DNA from: an uncultured Halobacteriales archaeon
Lineage (GTDB): Archaea > Halobacteriota > Halobacteria > Halobacteriales > Hikarchaeaceae
Direction of reading: 5' to 3'
NCBI GenBank assembly: GCA_964510865.1
Contig: CAZEDI010000004.1
Location: forward strand, 249 to 64,248
Length of the DNA: 64,000 bases
Below, one piece after another: positions 1,357 to 63,902 of this stretch. A program made the translations under genes and the position numbers. The notes under the pieces were generated by a model. That model made no database searches. It was not told the origin of the DNA and saw only the letters and a list, made by a program, of their open reading frames with translations. How positions within the stretch are numbered: position 1 is the stretch's first letter; each line of letters opens with the position of its first letter.

Positions 1357-1396
1357 GCGTGAACCAAGACGTGCTCGCCACATAAAACAAACGTTT

Positions 1397-1411: not shown

Positions 1412-1526
1412 GATAGTATGTTATAGTCACCGATACCCGGGACTCTGCCTCTTACTGACCTCTAAACAGCTATATACGGAAGAAACAGACCAATACCTTT
1501 GTTGTTCCGCTCCATTCGTCCCACGT

Positions 1527-1943: not shown

Positions 1944-2205
1944 CCTACACCGCCAGCCTGCGAGCACTGCCCTTGCTTTCGGGCACCGATCTTTCTACAG
2001 CTGGGAATAGCCCGGGCCGGGACCACTTGCACGTGAGACTTTTGACGGCTGTCCGCTTAGGGAAAGTCGGTGGCGATGACGAACAGTTACCCCCACTGAG
2101 CCCCTTGTGATGAGTCGTTCGCCCGAGCCACCACTTCTTCCAGACGGTGATCGTTGTTCTGTGTGGCCGGTATCGTCTCATGTTTACGTCCCGGTGTGAA
2201 ACAAA

Positions 2206-4218: not shown

Positions 4219-4227
4219 TGAGACGAG

Positions 4228-4845: not shown

Positions 4846-4964
4846 GGCTTCGATTGACTGCGTGCGGGGAAGGACCTCACGGTTCGAACCCGTCCGGGTG
4901 TGTCCACACCATTCTTCCCGTGAAATCCACTGTCTATTTGGGCCACGACGACGACCACTCGGCC

Positions 4965-6284: not shown

Positions 6285-6307
6285 CGTACTCCCGAAATTG
6301 ATCGTTA

Positions 6308-7363: not shown

Positions 7364-7514
7364 TATGGCGTATTACCCTCCCGGCGCCTATAAGGTCGTC
7401 CGTTCTGGATCGGGGCGGATATCGCTCCAGGAGCCACAGTCTTGACCCAATCAGTGATCTGAGTCGAACCGTTCCGGCAGCGTGTTTATCGGTGTCCACG
7501 TCATAGGACGTCAT

Positions 7515-7856
7515 ATGACCGACTGGAGTGCGATTCTCATCGGAGTCGTCGTCGCGATCGTTCTCGGTGCGGTCGCACCGGGACTGGGCCATGTCGTCGG
7601 TGGCTTGCTCGCCGGACTCGTCGCGGGATACATCGCCGGCGGCGGGCTCGGTCGGGGAGCGTGGCATGGCCTTCTCGTCGGGATGATCGGGGGAATCATA
7701 CTAGCCATCGTCCTCTTTTTCGTGAGCGCTGGCTTCGGCCCCATCGGTGCGGCAATTGGCGGGGGCCTCGCGATCGTTGTCTTGCTCGCGACGTTCTTAC
7801 TTGCGCTCGACAGTGCCATTGGTGGCGCTATCGGTGGCGTGCTCGCCGAGAGTTGA
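7515..7856 (+). CDS. small Gly-rich membrane protein (possibly DUF5518-like)
   Basis: Four Gly/Ala/Ile-rich TM segments. ATG at 7515 preferred over the upstream GTG at 7482. Confidence 0.6.
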   Translation: MTDWSAILIGVVVAIVLGAVAPGLGHVVGGLLAGLVAGYIAGGGLGRGAWHGLLVGMIGGIILAIVLFFVSAGFGPIGAAIGGGLAIVVLLATFLLALDSAIGGAIGGVLAES

Positions 7857-7881
7857 GACGCGGACCACGCGGCTGCTTCGA

Positions 7882-8181
7882 CTACCGGCGATCCCGGAGT
7901 TCCGCCTTGAGATCGTCGACGTGCATGTCCTTTTGTGCGAGTAAAACAAGAAGATGATACACCAGATCTGCACTTTCATGTGCGAGTGCGCTCCTCTCGT
8001 CGTCCTTCGCCGCGAGGATGAGCTCCGCCGTTTCCTCGCCCAGCTTCTCGAGGACGGCATTCTCCCCCTTGTCGTGGGTGAGGAGTGACGTGGTGTAGGA
8101 CCCCTCGGGGAGTGTCTCTTTTCGGTCCTCGATGACGGCAAAGAGCTCGTCAAGAACGTCTTCGCGCGCCTCTCGCGTCAT
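7882..8181 (-). CDS. hisE: phosphoribosyl-ATP pyrophosphatase
   Basis: SYTTSLL...KLGEETAELILAAKD...ESADLVYHLLVLL is the canonical HisE motif set. Confidence 0.9.
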   Translation of the reverse strand: MTREAREDVLDELFAVIEDRKETLPEGSYTTSLLTHDKGENAVLEKLGEETAELILAAKDDERSALAHESADLVYHLLVLLAQKDMHVDDLKAELRDRR

Positions 8182-8729
8182 TCCACGTCGACCCCCATTG
8201 ACGTGATTGGAGCCTCGAGGACCGCCCGGATGTCGTCGAGCTCCTCGAAGTCTTCTCGCGGTCGCCTGCCGTGGTCAAATACCTCATCATCGATCTCGAT
8301 AGGGGCGTTTGTGCGCGTTGCAAGGGCAAGAGAATCACTTGGACGCGCGTCGATCACCGTATCCTCTCCCCGGGGCGTGTTGATGTACAGATCAGCGATA
8401 TATGTGTTCTCGACAATTTCACTGACGACCACGCGTTCGACACGGCCACCGAGTTCCTCAACGAGGTCTAGGGTGAGATCGTGAGTGAGTGGTCGATCGA
8501 TCCCTGCTGCGTCCATCCCCCGTGCGATACTGATTCCCTCGTCAAAGCCGATAAAGATAGGGAGCACATCGTCCTCCTGTGTCTCCTCGTCCCTCTCATC
8601 TGCTGTGCCCCCGGTCGCTTCCGTGCCGTTTTCGGGCGCGAGAAGAACGACGGGAACCGGGCCCTCGGGCGTGCCAGCAACCCGGACAGCGTCGATGATT
8701 GCGTCCATAGTCCGATCGACGTGAGCCAC
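8178..8729 (-). CDS. bifunctional nuclease family protein (DUF151)
   Basis: PIFIGFDEGISIARG...RPLTHDL...ARPSDSLALA is the DUF151 core. 4-nt overlap with hisE suggests an operon. Confidence 0.8.
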   Translation of the reverse strand: MAHVDRTMDAIIDAVRVAGTPEGPVPVVLLAPENGTEATGGTADERDEETQEDDVLPIFIGFDEGISIARGMDAAGIDRPLTHDLTLDLVEELGGRVERVVVSEIVENTYIADLYINTPRGEDTVIDARPSDSLALATRTNAPIEIDDEVFDHGRRPREDFEELDDIRAVLEAPITSMGVDVE

Positions 8730-8799
8730 GTAGAAAAGGCTGCCTTCCGTATCGATGTCTTGCCACTACGTGAGTAGTCTCACCTCGTGATAGATCCGC

Positions 8800-9051
8800 G
8801 TCCACTACGTAGATATCTCGATTCCCCGGATTCTCGAGAGTAGAGGGATCAATATGATTTTATGTAATATATTTAGTATAATCTGGCTACACCACCCACA
8901 ATATTGTCCGTATGTCGACTACATCATTTTGGTAATAAATCACCGACAATATACGGACTAGTCCGACTATATACTATCCACTTAGGGTTTGTGGGAGAAG
9001 TGATAATTATGCTATATTTTGCACTATTACTATGTAGTTTGCCGTGGTACC
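8800..9051 (+). promoter_or_regulatory. about 250-bp AT-rich leader/promoter region of the protease gene, with a repeated 27-nt motif
   Basis: Sharp GC drop. ACAATAT-N-GTC(C)GACTAYAT occurs twice (8898-8924 and 8946-8972). GTCCGTAT (8906-8913) and ATACGGAC (8951-8958) are inverted. TATA-like TGATAATTAT / TATATTTT at 9001-9021. Confidence 0.4.
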
Positions 9052-11163
9052 ATGAACGTCATGAACGACCATGATATTACGAGGCGCGAAGCATTGGCAA
9101 AAATCAGTGCTGGGGGCGTTGGCGTAGTTACGCTCAGCACAGGTGTTGTGAGCGCCCGGGATCATGATCGCTACATCGTCGGTACGACCGGCAGGCGGGG
9201 GACACGTGCAGCACGGCGCGGTGCAGATTCCATCTACCGACAGCTCGACTTCGGGTCTCGTGGACAGGCCGTCGTCGGACGGTTTAGTACCAAAGTGCTC
9301 GAACGGTTGCGGAACAGGCGTGACGTCAGATACATCGAAGTCGACGGTACGATGCACGCTATCGAGCAGACGCTTCCATGGGGGATCGACAAGGTAGAGG
9401 CGGAGAAAGCGCACGCGAACGGCGAAACAGGTGGCGACGATGAGGGATCAGACATCGCCATTATCGATACCGGAATCGACAGTGATCATCCGGATCTGCA
9501 GGCCAACATCGGTGAGGGAGAAGCGTTTGTTGGGTGTAGAGGCGGTCCACAGACCTGTCGATTCGCGTGGGACGACGATCACAACCACGGGACGCACTGT
9601 GCAGGCATCGCGGATTCGAGTGACAATGACATCGGTGTCGTCGGAGTGAGCACGGAAGCGACGCTGCACGCGATAAAAGTTCTCGACAATAGCGGAAGTG
9701 GATCTTTCAGCGACGTCGCCGCAGGAATCACGTATGTCGCCGACCAGGGCTGGGATGTCGGGTCAATGAGCCTCGGCGGCGGTAAATCGGCGGCTGTCGA
9801 AGACGCGGTCGAGTATGCATATGATAAGGGTGTCCTCCTCGTCGCGGCAGCGGGCAACAATGGTCCATGTTCGGACTGCGTATCCTATCCAGCAGCTGAG
9901 CCCGAAGTCATTGCTGTGAGCGCGACCAGCGAGGACGATTCGCTGGCGAGTTTCTCCTCGACGGGCCCGGACGTCGAACTTGCTGCTCCCGGTGAAGACA
10001 TCTACTCGACAGTGATCGGGGGGTACTCTACCTTCTCGGGGACGTCCATGGCCTGTCCTCACGTCAGCGGCGCTGGCGGCCAGCTGATGGACAACGGATA
10101 CACGAACACCGAAGCCCGCGATCGCCTCAATTCGACCGCGACAGACATCGGTCTCGGAGACAATGAACAAGGGAACGGATTGCTCGACGTCGAGGCTGCA
10201 CTCGGATCGGCTGAATTACGTGTGGACAGTCTCTCGGTCGAGGAGGTCGAAACAAGTACGAGTAACGCAGAGTTCGACGTGACCTGGAGTGTGTCCGACC
10301 CGGAAGGCGAACTCGCGAGTGTCGATCTCGTCCTGCAAGACACGACGGATGGTGAAGAGGAAGATACTGAAACGATTGACGTGAGTGGCGATACGGCGAA
10401 TGATACTACGTCACTCGTTGCCAGCGGTGACGAAGGAAGTGGTAACAGTTACGAGGTCACTGCCACGGTCACAGACGGAGATGGTAATACTGCCTCGAAG
10501 ACAGTAAGCACAGCCGAGACTGAGTCTGTCCCCACGGTCGACAGCCTCTCCTTGTCCGAAGTCGAGGCAGACGACACTGACGAGGATGCAATATTTGACG
10601 CAGACTGGGCCGTGAGCGACGACGATGGTGATCTCGACACAGTGGACCTTGTGATGTGGGAGCTCGATACCAACGGAACCCGTGTTGAAGAAGAAACATC
10701 CGTCACGGAATCCATAGCTGGAGACTCCGCACGCGGGACGACCAGGCTCGTTGCCGTGGGCGATGACGGGGAGGGCAAAACCTACGAAGTAGACGCAGTC
10801 ATCACCGACACAGACGGAGATACGGGAACCGATACGGCGACCATTACCGAAACTGAGAGCACGTCGTCCGCACCGGTCATCGATCAATTCGACCTGACCG
10901 ATACCAGCAATCCGCACTGGGCACGTGTCGAGGTCGACTGGGGTGTATCGGACGTGGACAATGACCTCTCGGCAGTGATGTCCGAGGCCATCTTCGCCAA
11001 CGGAGGGACAGACACCAAAACCTCTACGATCAGCGGTGATTCGGTAACTGGGGAGCACGAACACCGTGAAGTCTCCGGACATGGCGATGTCGATGTGACC
11101 CTCACGGTCACCGATAACGAAGGCAACAGCACGACCGATACGAAGACGATTACCCTCGACTAG
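9052..11163 (+). CDS. Tat-secreted subtilisin-family (S8) serine protease, halolysin-like, with three C-terminal tandem modules
   Basis: Tat motif TRREALAKISAGGVGVVTLSTGVVSA. Catalytic D (IAIIDTGID), H (HGTHCAGI), S (SGTSMACPHVSG). Start at MNVMNDHD (ATG 9052) rather than the track start at 9019. Confidence 0.9.
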   Translation: MNVMNDHDITRREALAKISAGGVGVVTLSTGVVSARDHDRYIVGTTGRRGTRAARRGADSIYRQLDFGSRGQAVVGRFSTKVLERLRNRRDVRYIEVDGTMHAIEQTLPWGIDKVEAEKAHANGETGGDDEGSDIAIIDTGIDSDHPDLQANIGEGEAFVGCRGGPQTCRFAWDDDHNHGTHCAGIADSSDNDIGVVGVSTEATLHAIKVLDNSGSGSFSDVAAGITYVADQGWDVGSMSLGGGKSAAVEDAVEYAYDKGVLLVAAAGNNGPCSDCVSYPAAEPEVIAVSATSEDDSLASFSSTGPDVELAAPGEDIYSTVIGGYSTFSGTSMACPHVSGAGGQLMDNGYTNTEARDRLNSTATDIGLGDNEQGNGLLDVEAALGSAELRVDSLSVEEVETSTSNAEFDVTWSVSDPEGELASVDLVLQDTTDGEEEDTETIDVSGDTANDTTSLVASGDEGSGNSYEVTATVTDGDGNTASKTVSTAETESVPTVDSLSLSEVEADDTDEDAIFDADWAVSDDDGDLDTVDLVMWELDTNGTRVEEETSVTESIAGDSARGTTRLVAVGDDGEGKTYEVDAVITDTDGDTGTDTATITETESTSSAPVIDQFDLTDTSNPHWARVEVDWGVSDVDNDLSAVMSEAIFANGGTDTKTSTISGDSVTGEHEHREVSGHGDVDVTLTVTDNEGNSTTDTKTITLD
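10216..11160 (+). repeat. three tandem protein-level modules of about 100 aa (10216-10527, 10528-10869, 10870-11160) forming the protease C-terminal extension
   Basis: Each module has the pattern VDSLS/IDQFD ... (F/A)xVxW(S/A/G)VSDxxG(E/D)L..VDLV ... ending T(V/I)TD(G/T/N)(D/E)GN. Aligned by eye. Confidence 0.7.
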
Positions 11164-11492
11164 GACCGGCAGTACCCAGTGGCTGTAGCTATCGTCGCGA
11201 CTTCCCGTGCTACCAGAAGTGAACGGACCTACGACAGCTCGACGCTAGTGATATCGAATCGCATGCCTGAAGGTAACAGGTCAAGCACAAGGAGGAAGCA
11301 GCGTGAAGCCAGAGAAGAACCCATTCCGATCGTTGATTTGAAGCAATTCATCACAACGAACCCGGCGTCCGTGAGCACGCTGAATCCGAAGGCAGCTGCG
11401 TCATGTATATCTGAAAGACAGAGTCTGTCAATGTATGTTATACACGAGCGATCGCTCGAAACACGACAGCGGGGCAACTTGTCCGGTCGTCG

Positions 11493-12080
11493 TTACCGGT
11501 CGTCGAAGAACGCGAGCCAGTGAATTCGACTGTCATCCGTTAGTTCCGGATGGAAGGCAGTCCCGACAATGGGTCCCTGACGAACGGCCACAGGGCGGCC
11601 ATCGTACGAAGCCAGCACCTCGACGTCGTCCCCGACCTCGTCGATGACAGGTGCGCGGATGAATACCGCGTGAAAGGGGTGGTCAAGTCCGACGATAGCT
11701 AGGTCGGTCTCGAAACTGTCTGCTTGTCGGCCGAATGCGTTTCGGTCGACAGTAATATCCAAGATGTCGATTGTCGAGACTCGCTCATCTTTTGCATCAC
11801 GTGAGGCGACGATCAGCCCTGCACACGTCGCGAGCAGCGGCTTTCCCTTAGTGACGTGCTCGCGGATCTCCCCAGCGATCCCCTCACGCTCGAGGAGCCG
11901 GGAGATGGTCGTTGATTCACCTCCTGGCATCGAGAGGATGTCGCACGCCGGGACGAGTCCTGCGTCTCGGATCTGGATGACCTCGACCGAGACGCCGTGG
12001 CCGTCAGCCGCGCGCTCGATGGCAGCTGCGTGCTCGGAGACATCGCCTTGAACACCGACAACGCCGGCTCGTAGGGTCAT
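11493..12080 (-). CDS. pdxT: pyridoxal 5'-phosphate synthase glutaminase subunit
   Basis: AGVVGVQGDVSEH...PGGESTT...ATCAGLI...FIRAP...TAFHPELT is the canonical PdxT motif set. Confidence 0.9.
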   Translation of the reverse strand: MTLRAGVVGVQGDVSEHAAAIERAADGHGVSVEVIQIRDAGLVPACDILSMPGGESTTISRLLEREGIAGEIREHVTKGKPLLATCAGLIVASRDAKDERVSTIDILDITVDRNAFGRQADSFETDLAIVGLDHPFHAVFIRAPVIDEVGDDVEVLASYDGRPVAVRQGPIVGTAFHPELTDDSRIHWLAFFDDR

Positions 12081-12113
12081 TGATACACCAAGAGGAAGGG
12101 ACGGAACCGGGTG

Positions 12114-12275
12114 TTACCCCATTGCATTCAGCAGCTGAACCATGACGCCGAAGAGGACACAGAAGGCCATCACGGTCTTCGGGTCGATCTGGATCGCGTT
12201 TCGATCCTCGGCGTCGAAGTACCGGACTAACCCGGCACTCGACATAAGCCCTGAACCGCCGCCTGAACCACTCAT
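12114..12275 (-). CDS. secG: preprotein translocase subunit Sec61beta (SecG), 53 aa
   Basis: Below the track length cut-off. Hand translation: [53 protein letters not shown]. It has the conserved archaeal Sec61beta GLxRYFD motif plus a C-terminal TM. Confidence 0.8.
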
Positions 12276-12433
12276 ATATGTATGTGGCAGAGGGAGTGGC
12301 CTAAACCTTTCGTCGCGGGACCGGGGATAGCCACGATCTGTCTGGTTCAGACGGAGTCATGGGTAGCGGCAAGACGCGGCACGTAGGAAATCCTTATTCT
12401 ACGGGGTCATCTACCACCGCCAGTGACCCAGCA

Positions 12434-12703
12434 ATGACGGTGACGCTCAAGGACTTCCATGCAGACTGGTGTGGGCCGTGCAAGACCCAGGATCCGATCC
12501 TGGAGGAAATGAAGGAAGACTGGGGAGACCGCGTCACATTCGAGAAGATCGATGTCGATGAGAACCAGGACGTCGCAAACGACTATCAGGTGCGCTCCAT
12601 CCCCACGATCGTCGTGGAGAACGACGATGGCGTGGTCGAGCGATTCGTCGGCGTTACGCAACGTGACGATCTCGAGAACGCGCTCGAGCAGGCCGGCGCC
12701 TGA
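12434..12703 (+). CDS. trxA: thioredoxin
   Basis: WCGPC active site. Start taken at MTVTLKD (ATG 12434). The track ORF starts upstream at 12359. Confidence 0.9.
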   Translation: MTVTLKDFHADWCGPCKTQDPILEEMKEDWGDRVTFEKIDVDENQDVANDYQVRSIPTIVVENDDGVVERFVGVTQRDDLENALEQAGA

Positions 12704-46319: not shown

Positions 46320-48677
46320 TTATTGTGATTGCATCTCCTTCGTTTCTGTTGTCTCGTTTAACTCCTCGTCCTGTACGATCAGGTCGATCTTGTAGGTCGT
46401 GTGATGGCTGTCATCGGAGAGCAGGTCGTCCGAACCTGAAGCACTACTTCCGCTGACGTCGGTCGTCGAGCTGTCGTGAATACGCCCGTCGTGGCGGATC
46501 TGTGTCGTCACCTGATTGAGGTCGCCTTCATTGTCCGAGACTGCCCAGTCTACGCCGAACTTTGCTTGATTCGGATTGCTGTTGTTCTGGACGTCGAACT
46601 GGTCGATGATCGGTGCGCCTGTACCCTCTGCGGCCGTGGTGACGGACACCGTATTGCTCATCCCCGACTCGTTGTCGGCACCGTCGACTGCAGTCACTTC
46701 GAAGTCGTACGTCGTGCTGGGCGACAATCCACGGACGGTCGTCTCAGTTTTCATCGGGTCGATCACCTCTTTCACCTTTGTCCCATCCTGGTAGACGTGG
46801 TACTGATCGATGCCCGTCGCGTTGTCCGTCGATGGGTCCCAGTCGAGGTCGACCGAATCATCAGAGTGGTTCGGCGAGGTGAGGTTCTGGGGTGTCGATG
46901 GTGCGGTGGCGTCACTCGGTCGGCCGTTCCGGACGAACCGGAACCGCTCGATGTCGGCAACTCCCGATCCGCCGACGAACCGGAGGTAAACGTCGTGGAC
47001 ATTTGACGCAGATGAGACAGCAATGGCTTGTCGCGAGAACGTGTCGTACCCGCCCGTGTCCTCGACCGTGAGGGTGCCGAGAAGCGTTCCGCTCGGACCG
47101 TCAAGCCGTACCTCAACGTCATTTCCGGGAGAGCCACTCGACAGAATCGCTTCGAACCGGTCTACACCGTCGCCGAAGTCGATACCCGCATACTTCGCCC
47201 AGTCGCCGTCGTCCGCGCTGGTGAGCACGCTACCACTGGCGTCGACGCCCGAACCGTCGTCAATGTGCTCCGCCTGGATGACATCAGTCGCGGAAACTCC
47301 AGAAGTATCCATCTGGACCGTAATACTCCTCGTGTGCGTAGGATCACGAACGGTAACGTACTTGGCCCCACGTTCGCCGTTGCCGCGGGCTGTGATCTGG
47401 TAGGTTCCGAGGAACGCATTCGTCGAGTACGAGCCACTCCCGTCGGTGGACCCCGACGTGTTCGTCCACCACTGGTTGAAGAGCAGGTCAATGTAGTTGT
47501 AATAGCCGGGTTTCTTCGTCCAATCGGTTTCGAAGAGCGGTGCTTGGTCCTGCCAGTGACGGCCGCTATAGAAGCCCCACATCTGGAATCCAACGGTGGC
47601 GGGATGACTGTAGATCACCTTCATGAACTTATAGAGATAGTCACCGGCGTGGTTGTCGTTGTTCATATCAGCAGTATCGTACTCCAAAATCTGAATGGGG
47701 TGCTCGTCGATGGCGTGGAATTCGTCGAGAATAGACAATAGCGTACTCGCGTCCTGCTCGGGACGCGAGCCCCAGTGGTGACCCTGCATCCCGATCGCGT
47801 CAAGCGGGGCGTCGTTATCGACGAGGTGATTGATGAAGGTCTTGTAGTTGTCGTTGCCATCCTGGTTGATGACGTTGTAATCGTTCGTGTAGAGATCCGC
47901 GTGACCCGCTTCCGACGCTGCTTCCTCGAACCAGCGGAGTGACTCCGTTGGCTGATACTGCGGGTCCTCTTCGTTGATCTCGTCCGTCACGGCGGTCTCG
48001 TGTGACGGCTCGTTCTGAACACAGAACTCAGTAAACCCGACCGTGTCGGCCCAGTAACTCGTGAAATCCCGTTGACGTTGACGGGTCTCGTCCTGCAAAT
48101 ACTGATCATCCGGGTTGTCCTTATTCAACTCATCCACGATCCGCTGTGGGAGCGAAAAGTCAGTGTGCTGCCAGATGTTCGTGTGGCCGTGGATGTTGAG
48201 ACCTCGGTCGATCAGCCAGTTGATGGTATCTATCGCTTCCTGCTGGTCGTCATCCTCCCACTCGTTTTCCCAGGGTGCCCACTTGTTTCGATTCTCAAGT
48301 TGGGACTTGTTGAACAGATCTCGAAGGAACCGTCGGTAGTTCCCGCCGGGACTCGTCTGATCGATGAAATACTGCGCATTCGCTGCCGATCCGAATCCGA
48401 ACTCGTGCTCGACCATCGCGACGTCGACGTCAGCGTTGGAGACCGCGTTGCCCGAGGAATCGAGGACAGTTACGTCGATATCAGTCGTTCTGTACTGCTG
48501 GATCCGATTATCTGCGTCTGCCTCCCAGGCAGAGGCGAGGCCGGTGAACGCGCCCAACCCAGCGAGCCCGATGGCCGCCGGTATTGCCTTGAGCGCAGTC
48601 CGTCGCTCGATGGGGAGATACCCCTTCGAGTCATCATCAGTCGGTTCAGCGTCCGCTGTATGGTTATTGTCACTCAT
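46320..48677 (-). CDS. Tat-secreted GH10 endo-beta-1,4-xylanase with CBM6-like, FN3 and a C-terminal shared module
   Basis: RRTALKAIPAAIGLAGLGAFTGLASA. GH10 motifs LENRNKW, GHTNIW, VQNEP (acid/base Glu), TNDYNV, GMQGHH, ILEYD (nucleophile Glu). CBM-like IQAEHIDDGSG...RFRFV. FN3 PSTPQNLTS...YDFEVTAVDGADNES. Start at MSDNNH (48677). Confidence 0.85.
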   Translation of the reverse strand: MSDNNHTADAEPTDDDSKGYLPIERRTALKAIPAAIGLAGLGAFTGLASAWEADADNRIQQYRTTDIDVTVLDSSGNAVSNADVDVAMVEHEFGFGSAANAQYFIDQTSPGGNYRRFLRDLFNKSQLENRNKWAPWENEWEDDDQQEAIDTINWLIDRGLNIHGHTNIWQHTDFSLPQRIVDELNKDNPDDQYLQDETRQRQRDFTSYWADTVGFTEFCVQNEPSHETAVTDEINEEDPQYQPTESLRWFEEAASEAGHADLYTNDYNVINQDGNDNYKTFINHLVDNDAPLDAIGMQGHHWGSRPEQDASTLLSILDEFHAIDEHPIQILEYDTADMNNDNHAGDYLYKFMKVIYSHPATVGFQMWGFYSGRHWQDQAPLFETDWTKKPGYYNYIDLLFNQWWTNTSGSTDGSGSYSTNAFLGTYQITARGNGERGAKYVTVRDPTHTRSITVQMDTSGVSATDVIQAEHIDDGSGVDASGSVLTSADDGDWAKYAGIDFGDGVDRFEAILSSGSPGNDVEVRLDGPSGTLLGTLTVEDTGGYDTFSRQAIAVSSASNVHDVYLRFVGGSGVADIERFRFVRNGRPSDATAPSTPQNLTSPNHSDDSVDLDWDPSTDNATGIDQYHVYQDGTKVKEVIDPMKTETTVRGLSPSTTYDFEVTAVDGADNESGMSNTVSVTTAAEGTGAPIIDQFDVQNNSNPNQAKFGVDWAVSDNEGDLNQVTTQIRHDGRIHDSSTTDVSGSSASGSDDLLSDDSHHTTYKIDLIVQDEELNETTETKEMQSQ
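46323..46619 (-). other. 99-aa C-terminal module of the xylanase, homologous to the protease tandem modules
   Basis: GAPIIDQFDVQNNSNPNQAKFGVDWAVSDNEGDLNQV aligns with the protease third module APVIDQFDLTDTSNPHWARVEVDWGVSDVDNDLSAV. Confidence 0.7.
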
Positions 48678-49150
48678 AGTAGGTACTCTATCGCCGGTGT
48701 AGCGCACGACCGGAGTATCCGCCGTCAGGGTCGTGCTAACACACGGCGGAGTCTAGAAACAAAATCATACGATATAAGCCTAATTATTTCACGACTAGAT
48801 AAAGGATCTCACTGGAGTAATCATCAAATGAAAACGTAATTATGATCGAATTAATCCTTTAAAAGTTGTAGGTAATATTGACTAATTCGACAATCTTTTC
48901 AGTATAGATAAGGATGTATTCGGTGAAACGATTGAAACAGTAGAGGACGAACATGACCACGCGAGTTTGGGCAACCAGAGTGTACTGATGACGGACGCTA
49001 CATACACACGCGTTAGTCAGGATAGATCACGTTTTCAGGACATGGTGTGTTGTAGTTCGAGGGCTGTGGTACCTCATTACAGCTCTCTGTCGGGAGACAA
49101 CCAGCCTTATGAGGGGGAACTATGTGGCTCGCGGGCGAGTTATCCAACCC
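48678..49150. promoter_or_regulatory. about 470-bp non-coding, partly very AT-rich divergent region between the xylanase and DUF1028 genes
   Basis: GC collapses between about 48760 and 48950. No convincing ORF. Confidence 0.4.
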
Positions 49151-51792: not shown

Positions 51793-53079
51793 ATGACAGA
51801 CGGCGAGGCGCAGGCTGAGGCGGGAACCGCCGAGGGGCAGGGGCCGATCCAGATCGACGAGGAGCTGGCGCGCCACATCGAGAACAAACGTGAGGAGCTC
51901 CTCGAGAAGTTCGACCTCCACGATGAGCTCCCTCCCGCGGTCCTGGAGGAAGCTGAGCGGTGGACCGGTGATGTCACCGAGGAGGTCGCGGCAGAACTCG
52001 ATACCCGACGGGATCTCCGCGATCGCACAACATGGACGACTGACCCCATCGACGCACAGGACTTCGACGACGCAATCTCCGTCGAGGATCGAGACGACGA
52101 GTATGTCCTCTGGGTGCATATCGCGGACGTAAGCCACTACGTCACACCCGAAACAGAAGCATGGACTGCGGCAGTCGACCGTGGGAACTCGATCTATCTC
52201 CCGGGATACACGATCCATATGCTCCCGCGCATATTGGCCGAGACGGTCTGTTCACTCGTCCCCGAGGAGGATCGACTCGCACATACTGTCGAGATGCACC
52301 TGGACCGGGAGACGCTGGGGTTCGAAACCATCGAGATCTACAAGTCGGTGATCCGCTCCGATGAGCGGTTGACGTACACTAATTGTGAAGACCGGCTGGA
52401 AGACCCCGACACCCCGCTCCACGACGAGTGCTCACTCGCCTTCGACCTCGCGGAGCGGATGCACGAGCAACGCAAGGAGGACGGCTCGCTGGTGCTCAAC
52501 CCGAAACGGGACCGGGCCCACACCATCATAGAGGAGTGCATGCTGAAAGCGAACAAAGCTGTCACACACGAGCTGATGTGGAACCGCGGGGTGGAAGCGA
52601 TGTACCGCGTCCACCCGCAGCCGAGCCCCGAGGAGTGGGACGAAGCGCTCCGAGAGATTCAGGAATTGGATGACGTGTCAATCCCGGGAGAGGCGTGGGA
52701 CGATCCCCGAAAAGCGGTGAACGCGACGCTCGAACAGGCGCCCGAGCGACAGTTGGGAAAGATCCAATGGGCGGTGATGAAGGTGATGCCGCGGGCACGC
52801 TACATGAGCGACCCGTTTGGAGGTCACCACGCGCTAAACTTTGAAATCTATGGCCACTTTACCTCACCAATCAGGCGGATGTCCGATCTGGTCAACCACT
52901 GGATCGTCCACACGAACGATGTGCCGGAGGACCTTCCCGCACTCTGCGACCGGGCATCGGATCGCCAGAAACGCGCAGAGAACTGTGAGCGGGAGTATCG
53001 ACAGTTCCTGGAGGAGATCGGGTTGGATCCGGACGGCGTGAACAACCGGGGGATCGAAATCATCGAGACCGAGGATTGA
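51793..53079 (+). CDS. rnr: RNB-domain exoribonuclease (short archaeal RNase R)
   Basis: DPIDAQDFDDAISVE, HIADVSHYV, SIYLPGYTIHMLP, HHALNFEIYGHFTSPIRRMSDL. Confidence 0.9.
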   Translation: MTDGEAQAEAGTAEGQGPIQIDEELARHIENKREELLEKFDLHDELPPAVLEEAERWTGDVTEEVAAELDTRRDLRDRTTWTTDPIDAQDFDDAISVEDRDDEYVLWVHIADVSHYVTPETEAWTAAVDRGNSIYLPGYTIHMLPRILAETVCSLVPEEDRLAHTVEMHLDRETLGFETIEIYKSVIRSDERLTYTNCEDRLEDPDTPLHDECSLAFDLAERMHEQRKEDGSLVLNPKRDRAHTIIEECMLKANKAVTHELMWNRGVEAMYRVHPQPSPEEWDEALREIQELDDVSIPGEAWDDPRKAVNATLEQAPERQLGKIQWAVMKVMPRARYMSDPFGGHHALNFEIYGHFTSPIRRMSDLVNHWIVHTNDVPEDLPALCDRASDRQKRAENCEREYRQFLEEIGLDPDGVNNRGIEIIETED

Positions 53080-54178: not shown

Positions 54179-54829
54179 CTACGCGATAATCACTGAGCCC
54201 CGACGTTCGTATTCCATCTCGGCTGCGACGTCGTGAGCGACACTGGAATCGAACTCCCGTTCGACGAGGTAGAGCGCAAGATCGAGACCAGCCGTGATGC
54301 CGCCGGCGGTTAGGAGATCACCGTCGTCGACGACTCGTGCGTCGACCACCTGCGCACCCATATCGCGGAGATCGTCAACCGCACCATGATGAGTTACTGC
54401 AGGTCGGCCGTCCGTAAGTCCCGCGTGCGCGAGAAGGAGCGCCCCCGTACACACGGAGGCAACTGTTGCGCCCGTTGTGTATAGTCGCTCGAGTATAGCA
54501 GGGAGGTCCCCCCGCTCGACCTGTGCCCACGCCCCCTCCTCGGCGCGATTTCCCCAGCCGCCGCCTGGGACGACAACCACGTCCGGGACTCTGTGGGCCC
54601 CGTCGTCCTGGTCTTCGTCTGACGATACCTCTACTGTCCCCGTATCGTCGAGTACCCCATCCGGTTCGACGCGGAGTCCGTGGCTCGACGTGACGCTCGT
54701 CTGTCGAGCAGTCGTGTACAATCCGACGTCGATTTCGGCCCCACGTGCACGGGCGTGATTGAATACCTCGAACGGGCCGATCGCATCGATGTTGTCGAAC
54801 CCGTTGAACAGGACAATGGCGATGTGCAT
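54179..54829 (-). CDS. DJ-1/PfpI-family protein
   Basis: MHIAIVLFNGFDNIDAIGPFEVF ... nucleophile elbow ASVCTGALLLAHAGL. Confidence 0.85.
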   Translation of the reverse strand: MHIAIVLFNGFDNIDAIGPFEVFNHARARGAEIDVGLYTTARQTSVTSSHGLRVEPDGVLDDTGTVEVSSDEDQDDGAHRVPDVVVVPGGGWGNRAEEGAWAQVERGDLPAILERLYTTGATVASVCTGALLLAHAGLTDGRPAVTHHGAVDDLRDMGAQVVDARVVDDGDLLTAGGITAGLDLALYLVEREFDSSVAHDVAAEMEYERRGSVIIA

Positions 54830-55033
54830 AGCAGACGTTTGCTGCCTGCAGCCAAAACGATTCGTTCCATCGGATACGGAGTGACACCCGCGTCACAGAA
54901 TATGGCATGCATGACCGGGCCTTACCCACCGAGGATGGGCAGGTTCGATATTTGTGTTGACCACCCGCTGAGGCGGTCTCCATCACCCGCAAAGCAAGGT
55001 CTTTATGGATCGGTTCCTATCCAACGAAGACCT

Positions 55034-55699
55034 ATGACAAAAGTCTGCATGTTCCATACGGGGGCTAGCTTATCGGAAACGTTCACCGATCTTGCGAGAG
55101 AATACATCCCGGACGCAGAGCATTACCACATCGTCGACGAGAGCGTGATCAACGATCTCTTGGACATCGGAGAATTGACGCCGGACATCAAACAACGAAT
55201 TACCGTACAACTCTCCTTGGCCGAGCGGGGAGGGGCTGACATGATCTTAGACACCTGTTCCAGTACGTCTCCCGCCGTCGATGTTGCTCGGGAAGTGGTA
55301 GATATTCCGATCATAAAAATCGACGATCCGATGGCCGAGCGTGCAGTCGAACTCGGTGACCGCATCGGCGTTCTCGCGACAGCAAATTCCACCCTCGGGC
55401 CGAGCACCGAACTCGTCGAACGCAAGGCCGAGCAGGTCGATGGAGAGAACACAATAGAGTCGGTCCTCGTTGAGCACGCGTTCGAGGAGCGAACGAGTGG
55501 GAATATCGACAAACACGATGAACTCGTTACGGAACGGGCTCTCGAACTCGCCGAGACCGTGGACGTGATCGTTCTGGCGCAAGCATCGATGAGTCATCTC
55601 GAGGCAGCACTTGACGAACAGCTTGCGATTCCAGTGTTATCGAGTCCGGATCTTGCAATGGAGCGTATCGCCACGCTCGTCGATGAGGAGTCTTCATAG
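55034..55699 (+). CDS. Asp/Glu/hydantoin-racemase-superfamily protein
   Basis: Two-lobe layout: ADMILDTCSSTSPA (first catalytic-Cys position) and VDVIVLAQASMSHL (second position, no Cys). Start at MTKVCMFH (ATG 55034). The track ORF's N-terminal extension overlaps the DJ-1 gene antisense. Confidence 0.75.
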   Translation: MTKVCMFHTGASLSETFTDLAREYIPDAEHYHIVDESVINDLLDIGELTPDIKQRITVQLSLAERGGADMILDTCSSTSPAVDVAREVVDIPIIKIDDPMAERAVELGDRIGVLATANSTLGPSTELVERKAEQVDGENTIESVLVEHAFEERTSGNIDKHDELVTERALELAETVDVIVLAQASMSHLEAALDEQLAIPVLSSPDLAMERIATLVDEESS

Positions 55700-55762
55700 G
55701 TCACTAACGAGTAATTCCGTCGATCGCATACAAACTGACACCGAATCGAAAACTCGATATAC

Positions 55763-57025
55763 ATGTCACGGGTGCACGCTTCCTACCGAATTGAGACGCC
55801 ATTCCCGCCTGAGGATGCAGCCGCGGCGATGGCTGGAGAACAATCCTCCGGGACATTCACCGACGTTCCCGACGAAACCACTGAACTCATCGAACGGCAT
55901 GGTGCGACAGTCCAAGAGATAGAACTCATAGACGAGGTCTCCGAACCGTCCTTACCAGGTGCGATACCGGTCACCGAGGTAGGCGACGCAGAGACGTATC
56001 ACCGGGCAACCGTCGTCCTGTCGTTCCCAGTTGAAAACGTCGGGGCGTCGCTTCAGAATCTGCTCACAATGGTTGCCGGGAATCTCTTCGAACTGCGTCA
56101 TTTTTCCGGCCTCAAACTCATTGATGTCGAGATCCCGGCCGAGATAGCGGACGCATATCCTGGTCCGCAGTTCGGTATCGCGGGGACCCAAGCTATCGTC
56201 GATATACACGATCGGCCGGTGATCGGGACGATCATCAAACCGAGTGTCGGGCTCTCGCCATCGGAAACAGGCAGTCTCGTGGAGACGCTCGTAGATGCTG
56301 GTGTCGATTTTATCAAAGACGACGAACTGATCGCGAGTCCACAGTATTCCCCCGTGACAGAACGAGTGACCGAGGTAATGGACGTCATCCGATCCCACGA
56401 GGAACAGACCGGCAAGGAAGTGATGTATGCGTGTAACATCACCGGGGATATCGACGAGATGAAGGATCGACACGATTCGGTCGTCGAGGCTGGCGGTAAT
56501 TGTGTCATGGTCAGTATGAATAGCGTCGGACTCTCCGCTGTCCATGAACTCCGAACACACGCGGACGTACCCATCCACGGCCATCGAAATGGCTGGGGGG
56601 CGTTATCCCGGTCACCTCTCTTAGGCTTCGAATTTCAAGCCTACCATGCATTCTTTCGACTCGCTGGTATCGATCATATGCACGTGAACGGGATTCGCAA
56701 CAAGTTCTGTGAGTCTGATGAGTCTGTTATCCGTTCCGCACAATCGCTACAGACGCCCATCTGTTCGGAGGACGACGTCTGTATGCCCGTCTTCTCTTCC
56801 GGCCAGTGGGCGGAGCAAGCACACGATACCTATCGCGCCATGAAGAACACCGATTTCATGTACCTCGCAGGCGGTGGCATTCTCGGCCATCCCGGTGGCC
56901 CTGCCGCAGGCGTCGCTCATCTCAGACAAGGATGGGATGCCGCGATGAAGAATATCCCTCTGGAGGAGTATGCACGGGATCATGACGAACTACGTGTGGC
57001 ACTCGAGCATTACGAAAAACGATGA
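55763..57025 (+). CDS. RuBisCO large-subunit-like protein (form IV-like RLP)
   Basis: AGEQSSGTFT, GNLF, GTIIKPSVGL (Lys177 position is Ser), GVDFIKDDE, PIHGHRNG, HVNGIRNKF, SSGQW, AGGGILGHP. Confidence 0.85.
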   Translation: MSRVHASYRIETPFPPEDAAAAMAGEQSSGTFTDVPDETTELIERHGATVQEIELIDEVSEPSLPGAIPVTEVGDAETYHRATVVLSFPVENVGASLQNLLTMVAGNLFELRHFSGLKLIDVEIPAEIADAYPGPQFGIAGTQAIVDIHDRPVIGTIIKPSVGLSPSETGSLVETLVDAGVDFIKDDELIASPQYSPVTERVTEVMDVIRSHEEQTGKEVMYACNITGDIDEMKDRHDSVVEAGGNCVMVSMNSVGLSAVHELRTHADVPIHGHRNGWGALSRSPLLGFEFQAYHAFFRLAGIDHMHVNGIRNKFCESDESVIRSAQSLQTPICSEDDVCMPVFSSGQWAEQAHDTYRAMKNTDFMYLAGGGILGHPGGPAAGVAHLRQGWDAAMKNIPLEEYARDHDELRVALEHYEKR

Positions 57026-57229: not shown

Positions 57230-57376
57230 ATGCCGAGGTGCCGGAACTGTGATTCCTTTGTGACTGAATCGTATGTCCGAGTGTTTGCGCCGAATGGGAT
57301 GACCCGACCTCGTGTGTGTCCCCAGTGTGAAGACAAGACGCGAGCGAAAGGGGAAATACGTTCGAAACGGAGCTAA
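57230..57376 (+). CDS. small CxxC...CPQC zinc-finger protein, 48 aa
   Basis: Below the track cut-off. MPRCRNCDSFVTESYVRVFAPNGMTRPRVCPQCEDKTRAKGEIRSKRS*. Confidence 0.6.
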   Translation: MPRCRNCDSFVTESYVRVFAPNGMTRPRVCPQCEDKTRAKGEIRSKRS

Positions 57377-59755: not shown

Positions 59756-60016
59756 ATGGCCACCCAAACCTACGACGATTCCAACGAGGAGGGGGTCGAG
59801 TTTATTCATGAGGACGACGGCTCCATCACGGCCAGGGATAAGGAGATTGGGGTGGCCTCGTTTGGGCATACAAAGGCCGAGGCATTGCGAATGCTCGCCG
59901 AAGCTTTTACGCTCCTTGAAGGCGGTGGGGAGCCAGTGACTGAGGAAGGTCTCGAAGAGTGGGGACTAGACTCCCAGGAAGAAGGGGACAAAGAACTGCC
60001 CGAATTCATGCAGTAG
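59756..60016 (+). CDS. hicB: HicB-family antitoxin-like protein
   Basis: EFIHEDDGSITARDKEIGVASFGHTKAEALRMLAEAFTLL is the HicB/UPF0150 fold pattern. Acidic C-terminal tail. Confidence 0.7.
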   Translation: MATQTYDDSNEEGVEFIHEDDGSITARDKEIGVASFGHTKAEALRMLAEAFTLLEGGGEPVTEEGLEEWGLDSQEEGDKELPEFMQ

Positions 60017-60262
60017 GCGTCGATAGCCAGTACGCAATTATCCGGTCACGAGATAGCCGACGTCTTGTATAACCATGGTTTTCGGGAAGCAGGCCGGACT
60101 AGAAGTCATCTCAAACTACAGTGGGGGAGTTTTGAAACCGACGAAGTACGGATCGTGTCAGTGCCTATGACTTCAGAGGACGATATCCCGAGGAATTTGA
60201 GGACCCCACCATCGACAAATGACGGACTGCGAAGTTACTCCACCGCCGGACCGTCTCGCTGA
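60017..60262 (+). pseudogene. hicA: HicA-like toxin reading frame with no canonical start, in frame with hicB across a single TAG
   Basis: LSGHEIADVLYNHGFREAGRTRSHLKLQW...RIVSVPMTSEDDIPRNLRT matches the HicA pattern (LSG..GF....GSH....VP.H...). The only start candidate is a TTG at 60065, inside the conserved N-terminus. Confidence 0.45.
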
Positions 60263-60400
60263 TCGAGTTTAGATTAGAACTGCTTTCTCACCCGAGAAAG
60301 GCAAAGGTATCCGCTTCATGATCCAACTAGAGTACTGGCTGGACAGTGATTTGGACCGAAGTTGTTCGATATGATCATGACGCCACTGCAATAGGAGGTC

Positions 60401-60692
60401 ATGATGTCTCGAAATAAGGAATACATCGCGATGTTTCCCGAGATGGAGAAGAACTTCGTTCCGAATCCATTACAGGACTGATTCCGGCCAATGCGACATT
60501 CAATCACGCCGAAGAAAGCTCACATGAGAACGCCGAACGTTTCATCAAGGGATTTGAACAGTGACACGGCATCAGGAACAGGACCGACCTGTGAGAGAAG
60601 ACAAGTTTGACTCGATGCCCGAGCGAATCAGTGAGAACTTCAACCGAGTTCGGGAGCGCTTGGCAGAAGAGCTCGGTGACGACAGCGAGTAA
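60401..60692 (+). pseudogene. possible decayed small gene read through three frames
   Basis: AGGAGG then ATG at 60401. MMSRNKEYIAMFPEMEKNFVPNPLQD* / IPANATFNHAEESSHENAERFIKGFEQ* / TRHQEQDRPVREDKFDSMPERISENFNRVRERLAEELGDDSE*. The segments abut at 60481 and 60564. Confidence 0.25.
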
Positions 60693-60879
60693 CTTTCAAG
60701 ATCAGTTTATTCAATAAACGGCCGTCCGCACCTGCAAGGAGCGTCGGGCGGCCTCAGCTTCCAGCGGGAGCGGGGGTGATTAGAGTCATATATTTCCCGA
60801 ATTAAATAGAATTATCACAAAAATAACTATTTGAATAAATTAGACAATTTCTTATGGTGGTGCTAAGTAGGCTGATGAC

Positions 60880-62193
60880 ATGAAACAAACCTCTTCGGAT
60901 ATTCAAGAGATCATCACCGGTGAGCCGTTCCAAGAACTGGATGAAATCCTTAAAATTGCTGATGAGGATGGATTCGTTCTTGAAGCAAATGAGTATGAAC
61001 TCAAGGAGGCGATGGCAGATCTTGAACAATTGTTAGAGTATTTAGAAACTGCTATCGAGAGTGAAATATTAGATAATTTCACCCACCCAGAGCGCCAGAG
61101 TATCATTGAGCGATTGAAGAAAATTCGAGGAGAGTTAAACAATATAAAAAATGACAGAAATGACCACGTGGCTCAACTGATTAATCAGACTGCTGACTTA
61201 AAGAAACTTGTTCTCCGTGAGCTGAATCTGAAGTACGAAGTTGCTGATCATATTGACTATTCAGAACAAATACAGGAAATCCAGGAATTGACAGAAGAGC
61301 AAATTGAGCTACTCAGTGTCTTACGAGATGCCGAAGATATTGTGAGTGAAATTTCTGAGTTCGAACAACGATTAGAGGAAATGTCCTCTAATGCGCAAAC
61401 TGAGTTGTCCAATATTCAGGATTTGCGGTCAGATGTTGAATCTGAAGTAGATCAATTCAAAAGCTTTCTCGATCGACAAAACGACGAGTTATCGAATAGA
61501 CGAGATGAGGTGGACCGACTAACAAATGAAATCGAATCGGACCACGAACGAGCCAACCAGATGACTAATAATATTGAGAACTTAGAAGAACAACTTTCTA
61601 ATAATATAACGAAGGTAGACCGTCTTCGAGAAGAACTCAATAATTTGGTTAATCGAGCTTCATCTCTTCAGGACGATGTGGATGATCTTTTATCTGGAGC
61701 TGTTAGTGGAACTCTAGGCAAACGATTCGAAGAGAGGAAAATGGAGCTGGAAAATTCCTCGCGGTATTGGAGCCATATGACCTTGGTCGCAGTGATATTA
61801 TTAATTGGATCGGCATACCTAATTTTCCAAGACATCGTTGGACGAAGCGAGGTAGGATTCACAACAATTTCAAAATTGGCACTTTTGCTTCCAGTCTCGG
61901 TTGCGGTTTGGTTCACAGCAAGTAACTATGGAAGGGAAAGGAAACTTTTGGAAGAATATGCCTTCAAAACAAGTGTATCACTTTCATTAGACGGATTTAG
62001 GGAAGTTTTGGAAAAACAAGTTCCAGAAGAAGAAGACTCGACGATTAGTGACTTCCTTATTTCTTCAATGGCCACTATCTATACAAATCCCCTGTTTAAT
62101 CTTGCTAAATCTGATAGTGATGAGAATCCAGAGGATGGTACAAGTTTCGGGACCATGAGAAAACTAGCGGATTCTATACGTAATAGGAATTAG
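60880..62193 (+). CDS. AT-rich foreign gene: about 290-aa acidic coiled-coil N-domain, 2-TM hairpin, about 90-aa cytoplasmic tail; no family recognised
   Basis: Long clean ORF in the most AT-rich stretch of the window, with AAA/AAT/TTA/GAA-rich codon usage unlike its neighbours. Heptad-like E/L/N/Q-rich sequence to about residue 290. TM1 MTLVAVILLIGSAYLIF, TM2 ISKLALLLPVSVAVWFTA (about 61768-61920). No signal peptide. Confidence 0.75.
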   Translation: MKQTSSDIQEIITGEPFQELDEILKIADEDGFVLEANEYELKEAMADLEQLLEYLETAIESEILDNFTHPERQSIIERLKKIRGELNNIKNDRNDHVAQLINQTADLKKLVLRELNLKYEVADHIDYSEQIQEIQELTEEQIELLSVLRDAEDIVSEISEFEQRLEEMSSNAQTELSNIQDLRSDVESEVDQFKSFLDRQNDELSNRRDEVDRLTNEIESDHERANQMTNNIENLEEQLSNNITKVDRLREELNNLVNRASSLQDDVDDLLSGAVSGTLGKRFEERKMELENSSRYWSHMTLVAVILLIGSAYLIFQDIVGRSEVGFTTISKLALLLPVSVAVWFTASNYGRERKLLEEYAFKTSVSLSLDGFREVLEKQVPEEEDSTISDFLISSMATIYTNPLFNLAKSDSDENPEDGTSFGTMRKLADSIRNRN

Positions 62194-62391
62194 TAACTAG
62201 GTCTGGGTTATAGTTATACTTAGATTGGAATCGAATCCGATTTGTTCCCATTATCTGCCGGAGCTAAGCTCGCCAAGTTTGGTGAGGAGTACGGACTAAT
62301 CGAGATCGCGTATGAACAGCTCGGGGCGAGGTCCCACGACTACGGTGCGGCGTCATCTGGATCATAGTCCGCACCAGACGCGTCTAGATCC

Positions 62392-62886
62392 ATGACAGAG
62401 TCACCGAGGAGGCTGTCGACAGGCCGATCAGCGTCAGCAGGCCAGCGTTCGTATAAACAGCGCGGCGAGCGGTTCATCGCCCTGGACGACGAGACCTGCG
62501 CTGTGCTCGATGACTGGATTGCCGACCAACGGCCAGATGTCGAGGACGAGGACGGCCGGAAACGGGTCGATCGGCAATCCGAGCAACCGGCGGACGCGAT
62601 CCATTTCGGAAGCGAGATCCACGACGTTCTCGGAGGTGGCATTGCGGTGGATGCGAAGGTAGTGCAGGACGACGTGTTTCCAGCCAGCGAAACCGTGACC
62701 TGACGGGTTACTGACCTGTGCTCGTCCAGCGTCCCATTGCTTTCGCGCGAGACTCGCCACGCGCGTGATGAAGTGGAATTGAGAGGTGTCGATTGGCCGT
62801 ACCCATCTCGAATTCAGGAACTTCTGGGCTACGCTCCTCCTTAGAAGCCGCCTCCTCGCCGCGCCCGATGGGGCCACCGCCAACAC
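62392..62886. pseudogene. possible tyrosine-recombinase (integrase) remnants; strand and frame ambiguous
   Basis: Plus strand 62467-62559: GERFIALDDETCAVLDDWIADQRPDVEDEDGR resembles the haloarchaeal integrase segment GER.v.L....C..L.DYI...R.DV.D..GR. Minus strand 62593-62886 has a weaker N-domain-like stretch (VVLHYLRIHRNATSENVVDLASEMDRV). No intact catalytic domain was seen. Confidence 0.3.
62776..62831. repeat. imperfect direct repeat, copy A (partner at 63706-63763)
   Basis: gaattgagaggtgtcgattggccgtacccatctcgaattcaggaacttctgggcta versus copy B. About four-fifths identical by hand alignment, with single-base gaps. Confidence 0.55.
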
Positions 62887-63830: not shown

Positions 63831-63902
63831 TGGACTCGCCGGGATTTGAACCCGGGGCCTCTTCCTTGCGAAGGAAGCGATCTGCCGCTGATCTACGAGC
63901 CC
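63831..63902 (-). tRNA. tRNA-Ala (anticodon CGC)
   Basis: Hand-folded from the reverse complement: GGGCTCG TA GATC AGCGGCA GATC G CTTCC TTCGCAA GGAAG AGGCC CCGGG TTCAAAT CCCGG CGAGTCC A. All stems pair. G3:U70 is the Ala identity pair. U33 and purine-37 are present. CCA is not encoded. Confidence 0.9.

Follow-up and report, generated by a model that had tools for sequence, protein, structure and literature searches.

The 64-kb stretch of DNA analysed here (the window) is haloarchaeal, with a G+C content of ~59% and acidic proteins, and contains a gene of the Asp/Glu/hydantoin-racemase superfamily followed by a gene of a RuBisCO-like protein (RLP). We suggest that these two genes are probably two-thirds of a conserved three-gene catabolic module of bacteria and haloarchaea, in which a racemase-fold enzyme and an RLP are joined by an acid-sugar kinase of the DUF1537 family. 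The elements of the pair are as follows.

55001-55008, forward strand: TATA-like element CTTTATGG, ~30 base pairs (bp) before the ATG of the racemase-like gene, read from the sequence.
55034-55699, forward strand: Asp/Glu/hydantoin-racemase-superfamily gene, 221 amino acids; Pfam Asp_Glu_race (PF01177), 2.8e-22.
55700-55762, forward strand: intergenic spacer separating the RLP gene from the racemase-like gene, exactly 63 bp, read from the sequence.
55763-57025, forward strand: RLP gene, 420 amino acids, uninterrupted open reading frame (ORF); Pfam RuBisCO_large, 2e-69, and RuBisCO_large_N, 9e-11.

This is the layout described in the first-pass annotation, including the length of the RLP, the gap and the shared strand. 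The start of the racemase-like gene is an ATG that agrees with the N-termini of its homologues. Haloarchaeal TATA boxes are usually spaced at -27, and CTTTATGG would fit a leaderless transcript starting the two-gene unit. By inspection, the 63-bp spacer contains neither a terminator-like oligo-T run nor a TATA-like element at about -27 from the ATG of the RLP, and a two-gene transcript is therefore plausible.

Both Pfam scores of the RLP place it in the RuBisCO large-subunit superfamily (PF00016, 234.6 bits, cutoff 30.1; PF02788, 42.5 bits, cutoff 20.7). Its best NCBIfam match, aligned over the full length, is OiaX (NF042437) with 489.6 bits, which is below the 700-bit equivalog cutoff. The model of form III RuBisCO (TIGR03326, rubisco_III) gives 259.4 bits at a cutoff of 497.45. 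Identities as the methionine-salvage enolase MtnW (197 and 155 bits, cutoffs 409 and 514) and as form II RuBisCO (147 bits, cutoff 489) were rejected. The closest solved structure is PDB 3nwr_A (414 bits, alignment over residues 4-417), with a score about twice those of the next PDB matches, a Chlorobium RLP (204 bits) and a form III enzyme (189 bits). 3nwr is deposited only under the name 'A rubisco-like protein', with no function assigned in its record; we take it to originate from Burkholderia fungorum and to have no published function. It is similar to the Burkholderiales-type loci of the set in which neither ApnO nor the racemase-like gene is close to the RLP; these have N at 177 and either Y or F at 298.

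Of the 81 family columns with a conservation of 95% or more, 79 are kept in the RLP, and the exceptions are R143Q and Q295H, at positions where R and Q, respectively, are conserved in 82 of 85 relatives. Haloarchaeal homologues form more than 120 clusters at 60-72% identity, several of them on megaplasmids. One homologue, on the Natrinema sp. plasmid NZ_CP082248.1 (148550-149647), is truncated to 87% of the query, and its annotation names only a C-terminal-like domain; possibly it is a decayed member of the same family.

The active-site residues were mapped to spinach numbering through standard motifs. All motifs quoted in the first-pass annotation are present (AGEQSSGTFT, GNLF, IIKPS, DFIKDDE, HGHRNG, HVNGIRNKF, SSGQ and GGGILGHP). 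The canonical residues E60, T65, N123, K175, K201, D203, E204, H294, R295, H327, K334, S379, G380, G403 and G404 are kept, and the signature of 20 positions is completed by the substituted residues F66, S177, W298, F335 and Q381. Three of these substitutions, K177S, L335F and G381Q, had already been reported correctly; W66F and H298W had been left unmentioned. The full catalytic and ribulose-1,5-bisphosphate-binding set of form III enzymes includes K177, H298, G381 and W66, and all four are replaced. On these scores and residues the protein is an RLP and not a carboxylase, as had been proposed from the sequence.

The signature is identical at all 20 positions to those of four related loci (L043, L007, L018 and L004) where the RLP stands beside ApnO-like and OiaK-like genes, and it is also identical in L033 and L016. 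N123 and H327 are common to the RLP of the window and to its racemase-type and ApnO-type relatives. Among the members tested, the OiaX cutoff is passed only by a rhizobial clade (L078, 788 bits; L083, 777 bits), which has the signature D60, G123, A177, Q327 and Y335. The RLP of the window has E60, N123, S177, H327 and F335 at these diagnostic positions and thus lacks the OiaX signature. The remaining members, the window included, score 412-516 bits on the OiaX model, and all of them have N123 and H327.

The characterised members of the DUF1537-linked RLP group degrade 3-oxo-isoapionate-4-phosphate in D-apiose catabolism. PMC6302742 reports from Carter et al. 2018 two activities on this compound, a decarboxylase in A. 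radiobacter K84 (the OiaX type) and a transcarboxylase/hydrolase in Xanthobacter autotrophicus (OiaT). We place the RLP of the window in the non-OiaX group, which is probably OiaT-like. This would explain its nearly intact active site, because a transcarboxylase/hydrolase must repeat the carboxylation, hydration and cleavage of RuBisCO. The RLP shares with OiaX the fold and the kinase-linked family. It also shares the DUF1537-linked family with OiaT; relatives with the identical signature sit in clusters of ApnO, RLP and OiaK-like genes, and N123, H327, K175 and K334 fit a repeat of RuBisCO carboxylation and hydrolysis. Unlike the OiaT pathway, the window has neither ApnO nor a kinase, and its partner is a racemase-fold gene, which we did not find described for that pathway.

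The genomic context of the relatives points in the same direction. Kinases were counted in 80 related loci, with one genome per species and RLPs 46-71% identical. A DUF1537 kinase is present in 76 of them, and in 71, on the strand of the RLP, it begins no more than 500 bp downstream. These kinases best match OiaK (448-457 bits, cutoff 700); the OiaX score of the RLP and the OiaK score of the relatives' kinases both lie at ~65-70% of the respective cutoff. The ApnO-like neighbours (PGDH_C/F420_oxidored) match PDB 5t57, the D-apionate oxidoisomerase ApnO (PMC8518648), with 255 bits, and the route published for D-apionate consists of ApnO, OiaK and OiaX (PMC12994016). Hence, the first-pass view of the RLP as standing outside known partner systems is not supported. 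By its best matches (OiaX and 3nwr) and by the kinases of its relatives, it belongs to the DUF1537-kinase-linked, OiaX/OiaT-related family, the acid-sugar-degrading, D-apionate-type branch, and is itself a new member of an already known family.

The partner of the RLP was scored within 10 kb in 87 loci, including the window, with the following result.

Racemase-like gene only: 29 of 87 loci.
ApnO-like gene only: 21 of 87 loci.
Both racemase-like and ApnO-like genes: 3 of 87 loci.
Neither: 34 of 87 loci.

The racemase-like gene is thus found near the RLP in 32 of the 87 loci, with identities of 38-47% in bacteria and 64-69% in haloarchaea, and the recurrence of the pairing, for which a neighbourhood check had been proposed, is wide. 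The racemase-like gene and ApnO are negatively associated across the 87 loci. The kinase is present in 28 of the 29 racemase-only loci, with the window as the sole exception, and in the three loci with both partners. The pairwise identities of the racemase-like proteins and the RLPs co-vary (r = 0.86; none of 2000 Mantel permutations reached the observed value). Carriers of the racemase-type locus are Sphingomonadales, Acidobacteria, Chloroflexi, Planctomycetes, Paenibacillus, Bacteroidota and Halobacteria.

The two types of loci also differ in their accessory genes. GH127 or GH127-like genes (GH, glycoside hydrolase family) occur in 23/29 racemase-type versus 1/21 ApnO-type loci, and GH78 rhamnosidase genes in 17/29 versus 0/21. 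An MFS transporter is encoded in 19/29 racemase-type loci, and genes for SGNH/GDSL esterases, fucosidase and GH42, GH43-like and GH2 enzymes are also found there. The racemase-type loci have no conserved dehydrogenase family; a GFO_IDH_MocA dehydrogenase occurs only in ApnO-type loci (5/21), as expected for apiose oxidation. In Halorarum halobium, whose RLP is 72% identical to that of the window, an ABC sugar transporter, the Asp_Glu_race gene, the RLP, the DUF1537 kinase, an epimerase-family gene and a GH78 rhamnosidase are encoded in this order; the kinase overlaps the stop codon of the RLP, and ApnO-like and GH127-like genes lie upstream. The survey from the racemase side sampled 80 metagenome loci; among the 38 with a length of at least 8 kb, 16 contain the kinase and 11 the RLP. 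Tight operons of RLP, kinase and racemase-like genes are found at L144, L154 and L157, and the order RLP, kinase, racemase-like gene, SBF transporter occurs.

A neighbour-joining tree of the RLPs has no split by partner type, and RLPs and kinases of racemase-type and ApnO-type loci interleave; thus the partner type is not predictable from the RLP sequence. A comparison of specificity residues between the two types of loci gave only conservative, lineage-driven differences in RLPs and kinases. Whatever the third enzyme, the core RLP-kinase pair appears to have one and the same substrate or very similar ones.

The racemase-like protein is a clear member of its superfamily (80 bits against PF01177, cutoff 31). 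Its AlphaFold2 model has a pLDDT of 94.9, and Foldseek aligns the model, with TM values of 0.7-0.78, probability 1.00 and an identity of only 13-19%, to racemases of glutamate, aspartate, hydantoin and allantoin. Its family profile matches the hydantoin and allantoin racemases no better than about E = 1e-6. The first catalytic cysteine, C75 in the TCSS motif, is kept and nearly invariant in two homologue sets (34 and 30 sequences). The position of the second one is occupied by Gln183 or Ala184, depending on the template (1jfl and 3qvj alignments), within the LAQASM motif, which is invariant or nearly so in the same two sets. The protein has one catalytic cysteine only, and it is not a standard two-thiol racemase, because the second cysteine is replaced by Gln-Ala-Ser. 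In arylmalonate decarboxylase (AMDase), which together with the Asp/Glu, hydantoin and allantoin racemases of PF01177 has the same fold, the arrangement is opposite, and only the second cysteine is kept. The protein deviates from its family at one column that is at least 90% conserved (34 homologues), and it is 69% identical to the Halorarum halobium orthologue upstream of the RLP-kinase pair.

We suggest that the racemase-like protein is probably an isomerase rather than a racemase, and a single-base proton-transfer reaction is the more likely one. A classical two-base racemisation is unlikely with the second cysteine missing; of the two-step isomerisation or epimerisation considered plausible in the first-pass annotation, an isomerase role is what we still propose.

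The window itself holds an incomplete copy of the module, with two of the three genes. No DUF1537 kinase was found by tblastn in the whole 64 kb with two haloarchaeal kinases as queries, which extends the earlier statement that none is nearby; a low-stringency tblastn for a kinase pseudogene downstream of the RLP returned noise only. The window thus lacks the adjacent kinase that is typical of the DUF1537-linked RLP family. The racemase-like and RLP ORFs are both intact and nearly fully conserved. The absence of the kinase is a peculiarity of this contig and not a property of the clade, since 28 of 29 racemase-only loci carry it. As the contig of the source record is no longer than 65.4 kb, the kinase may be elsewhere in the genome. 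The pair here either cooperates with a kinase whose gene lies at another site or is a fragment left stranded.

Based on the gene content of the complete loci and the active-site signatures, we propose the following sequence of events for the module.

Step 1: An anionic sugar would be imported by a transporter of the MFS, SBF or ABC type.

Step 2: The single-cysteine racemase-fold enzyme would perform a redox-neutral isomerisation by proton transfer, yielding a branched 2-hydroxy-3-oxo acid sugar. The product may be 3-oxo-isoapionate or a close analogue, and the enzyme would take the role that ApnO has in the D-apionate pathway.

Step 3: The OiaK-like kinase would phosphorylate the terminal CH2OH group that adjoins the keto group.

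Step 4: The site of the RLP with the carbamylated Lys201 and Mg2+ would decarboxylate the beta-keto acid to an enediolate. We suggest that the RLP probably also re-carboxylates and hydrolyses it in the OiaT manner, because N123, H327, K175 and K334 are kept here and are partly lost in OiaX. The outcome would be 3-phosphoglycerate and a short hydroxy acid.

The same logic is reportedly found in the OtnI/OtnK/OtnC route for four-carbon acid sugars, said to have been described by Zhang et al. in 2016. There the 3-oxo acid sugar comes from an isomerase, a DUF1537 kinase adds the phosphate, and CO2 is then lost through a decarboxylase. However, the isomerase of that route is a xylose-isomerase-like TIM barrel and the decarboxylase is a class II aldolase, whereas the racemase-type module would use a racemase-fold protein and an RLP.

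Several points weigh against the proposed module and mechanism. The OiaT assignment was reached by exclusion and active-site logic; homologues found with a Paraburkholderia RLP as the query carry generic names only, and tblastn against plasmids gave no Xanthobacter record. The Asp/Glu racemase superfamily is not known to include an aldose-ketose or a 2-oxo/3-oxo isomerase. The three loci with both ApnO and the racemase-like gene mean that the two are not strict alternatives. As RLPs and kinases have no specificity differences between the locus types, the racemase-like enzyme may make the same substrate, make a homologue of it or act after the RLP. Its homologues are also found without an RLP, and some haloarchaeal copies are solitary. 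Finally, besides the kinase, tblastn found no ApnO, GH127-like protein or transporter binding protein of the module in the 64 kb.

At least three variants of the module recur in the RLP/DUF1537 branch, with ApnO, with the single-cysteine racemase-fold enzyme and with a VOC/glyoxalase protein, of which only the ApnO type is already described. The racemase-type module is an undescribed variant of the known RLP/DUF1537 acid-sugar system. A full-text literature search found no paper linking an RLP or a DUF1537 kinase with a partner of the Asp/Glu-racemase family, in agreement with the first-pass statement that no RLP pathway with such a partner is described.

The third variant, with a VOC/Glyoxalase_4 gene near or directly upstream of the RLP, was seen at L002, L006, L089 and L090 (haloarchaeal plasmids) and at L082 and other Burkholderiales. 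In haloarchaea a gene for a 267-residue protein without a Pfam match lies between. SDR, HpcH aldolase and TRAP transporter genes often accompany this variant, and we found no description of it. Other arrangements occur too. At L087 (a Halobacteriaceae metagenome-assembled genome, 8531-14088) an Apiosidase-domain (PF13204) gene stands directly upstream of the RLP-kinase pair, and a gene of the enolase superfamily (MR_MLE) comes after it; within 10 kb there is no ApnO and no racemase-like gene. At L027 (Paenibacillus lautus, 737-12666), two DUF1537 kinase genes (5212-6534 and 11260-12666) and an FGGY kinase flank the genes of a GH127-like protein, the racemase-like protein and the RLP. A sister subfamily of the racemase-like protein (~45-50% identical) has a gene of the Amdase family (PF17645) and a TRAP transporter as partners, and its loci L085, L086, L094, L099, L105 and L109 contain neither RLP nor kinase.

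The surroundings of the pair in the window are housekeeping genes (SDR, RNB exoribonuclease, PUA-domain protein, CNNM/CorC, UvrA, ABCE1 and UvrD), and its immediate neighbours are as follows.

54179-54829, reverse strand: DJ-1_PfpI gene (Pfam), upstream of the racemase-like gene and on the opposite strand.
57230-57376, forward strand: small zinc-ribbon ORF of 48 amino acids (Pfam DUF7563), downstream of the RLP.

Both had been correctly recognised as a divergent DJ-1/PfpI gene and a tiny zinc-finger ORF. As part of a conserved setting, DJ-1/PfpI is not retained, for it has no homologue at any related locus; DUF7563 is not among the called genes of the related loci inspected, with no search aimed at it. 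As neither recurs in the gene tables of the related loci (for DUF7563 without a direct search), both were dropped as pathway members. The RNB-domain exoribonuclease (RNase R/II-like, 428 amino acids, 51793-53079, forward strand) has a highly acidic N-terminus. About 7 kb upstream of the pair, a GH10 xylanase of 795 amino acids with CBM6 and fibronectin-III domains is encoded (46320-48707, reverse strand), and the source organism thus appears to be a plant-polysaccharide-degrading haloarchaeon. The G+C content falls to 39-49% at 60000-62500, around a coiled-coil/membrane ORF of 437 amino acids (60880-62193, forward strand) and near a tRNA-Ala(CGC) gene (63831-63902); this region may be a foreign insert.

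Which sugar the module serves leads to a more specific reading, doubtful as it stands, that the racemase-fold enzyme, the DUF1537 kinase and the RLP form a three-step pathway for L-aceric acid (3-C-carboxy-5-deoxy-L-xylose). This branched acidic sugar is unique to rhamnogalacturonan-II (RG-II), where it belongs to side chain B. The single-cysteine enzyme would turn the aldose into the 2-ketose, a methyl homologue of 3-oxo-isoapionate, the kinase would phosphorylate C1, and the RLP would yield 3-phosphoglycerate and lactate, or 5-deoxypentulose-1-phosphate. Such a route fits the dehydrogenase-free gene set, because the 2-ketose isomer needs no redox step. It is also consistent with the GH127 and GH78 enrichment, with the GH42, GH2, fucosidase and SGNH/GDSL esterase genes and with the transporters of anion-carrying types at racemase-type loci. 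The set of GH127, GH78, beta-galactosidase, fucosidase and acetyl esterase presumably resembles what the dismantling of side chain B needs.

The marine contig L154 places the module beside an apparent transketolase route for apiose. This TARA contig (10-15262) carries two GH2 genes, the RLP, the kinase, the racemase-like gene, an SBF transporter, DeoR, a fucose-isomerase-like gene, a split transketolase and an RbsB-like binding protein, and looks like a racemase-type module adjoining the transketolase route for D-apiose. Two findings speak against aceric acid. The GH127 domain protein is closer to PDB 5opj, which we take to be a GH146 arabinofuranosidase, than to 5mqo, presumably the aceric-acid hydrolase BT1003, and the RLPs and kinases have no specificity changes relative to ApnO-type loci. 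The haloarchaeal GH127-like protein of 570 amino acids had no PDB match, and no paper on aceric acid catabolism was found in the full-text literature search.

It is unlikely, though to be considered seriously for this contig, that the pair is a stranded remnant of a racemase-RLP-kinase-glycosidase cluster, left after deletion or rearrangement, with the pathway lost and the genes non-functional or decaying. In favour of a remnant, among the 29 racemase-type loci the window alone lacks a kinase, and it has no trace of one downstream of the RLP. In the closest relatives (L001, L088 and L174) the pair is surrounded by genes for an ABC transporter, GH78 and a GH127-like protein, all absent in the window, where RNB exoribonuclease, UvrA, ABCE1 and CNNM/CorC are the neighbours, and the RLP is off consensus at the two positions given above. 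However, both ORFs are full-length and without frameshift. The RLP keeps the other conserved columns and all 20 canonical active-site positions of the family, and the racemase-like protein is off its family at a single conserved column. Moreover, the kinase is unlinked or several kb distant in some relatives (L041; Natronococcus) and may sit on another contig.

A self-contained two-enzyme path, as envisaged in the first-pass annotation, is improbable. Here the racemase-fold enzyme and the RLP would isomerise, epimerise or (de)carboxylate an acid or sugar phosphate without a dedicated kinase. The genes are indeed adjacent and co-oriented, with a TATA-like element only before the first, the pair stands alone in the window, and RuBisCO-type and Asp/Glu-racemase families both use enolate chemistry, which is established knowledge. 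Nevertheless, the kinase accompanies nearly all racemase-only loci, the active site of the RLP, including the phosphate-binding residues, is identical to that of kinase-linked relatives, and no other kinase-free racemase-RLP pair was seen among ~170 loci inspected.

A form III RuBisCO, acting as carboxylase of the archaeal AMP/pentose-bisphosphate pathway as in some other haloarchaea, is highly improbable: the host is archaeal, the catalytic residues are largely kept and form III enzymes match the RLP significantly, but the TIGR03326 score is far below its cutoff, K177, G381, H298 and W66 are replaced, 3nwr is twice as similar as any form III enzyme, all close relatives are kinase-linked RLPs, and no AMP phosphorylase, ribose-1,5-bisphosphate isomerase, phosphoribulokinase or methionine-salvage gene was found among the genes within ~15 kb and the ten largest ORFs elsewhere, as had been noted before.

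Last, we consider the meaning of the three-gene module for the RLP family. As the copy in the window is incomplete, Halorarum halobium CP134949 or Telmatobacter bradus are better starting points for experiments. The racemase-like enzyme may indicate a type of reaction new to the Asp/Glu racemase superfamily. The evolution of RuBisCO chemistry is viewed mainly through RLPs, and only a handful have assigned functions; the present analysis moves a haloarchaeal protein from the orphan RLPs to the branch that acts on acid sugars of the D-apionate type. Members of this group retain nearly the complete catalytic set of RuBisCO and are thus relevant to the question of which RLPs still carboxylate. The racemase-type variant, which occurs in clusters of pectin-side-chain glycosidases, is a concrete and testable clue to how a rare plant sugar is broken down, a route still missing.

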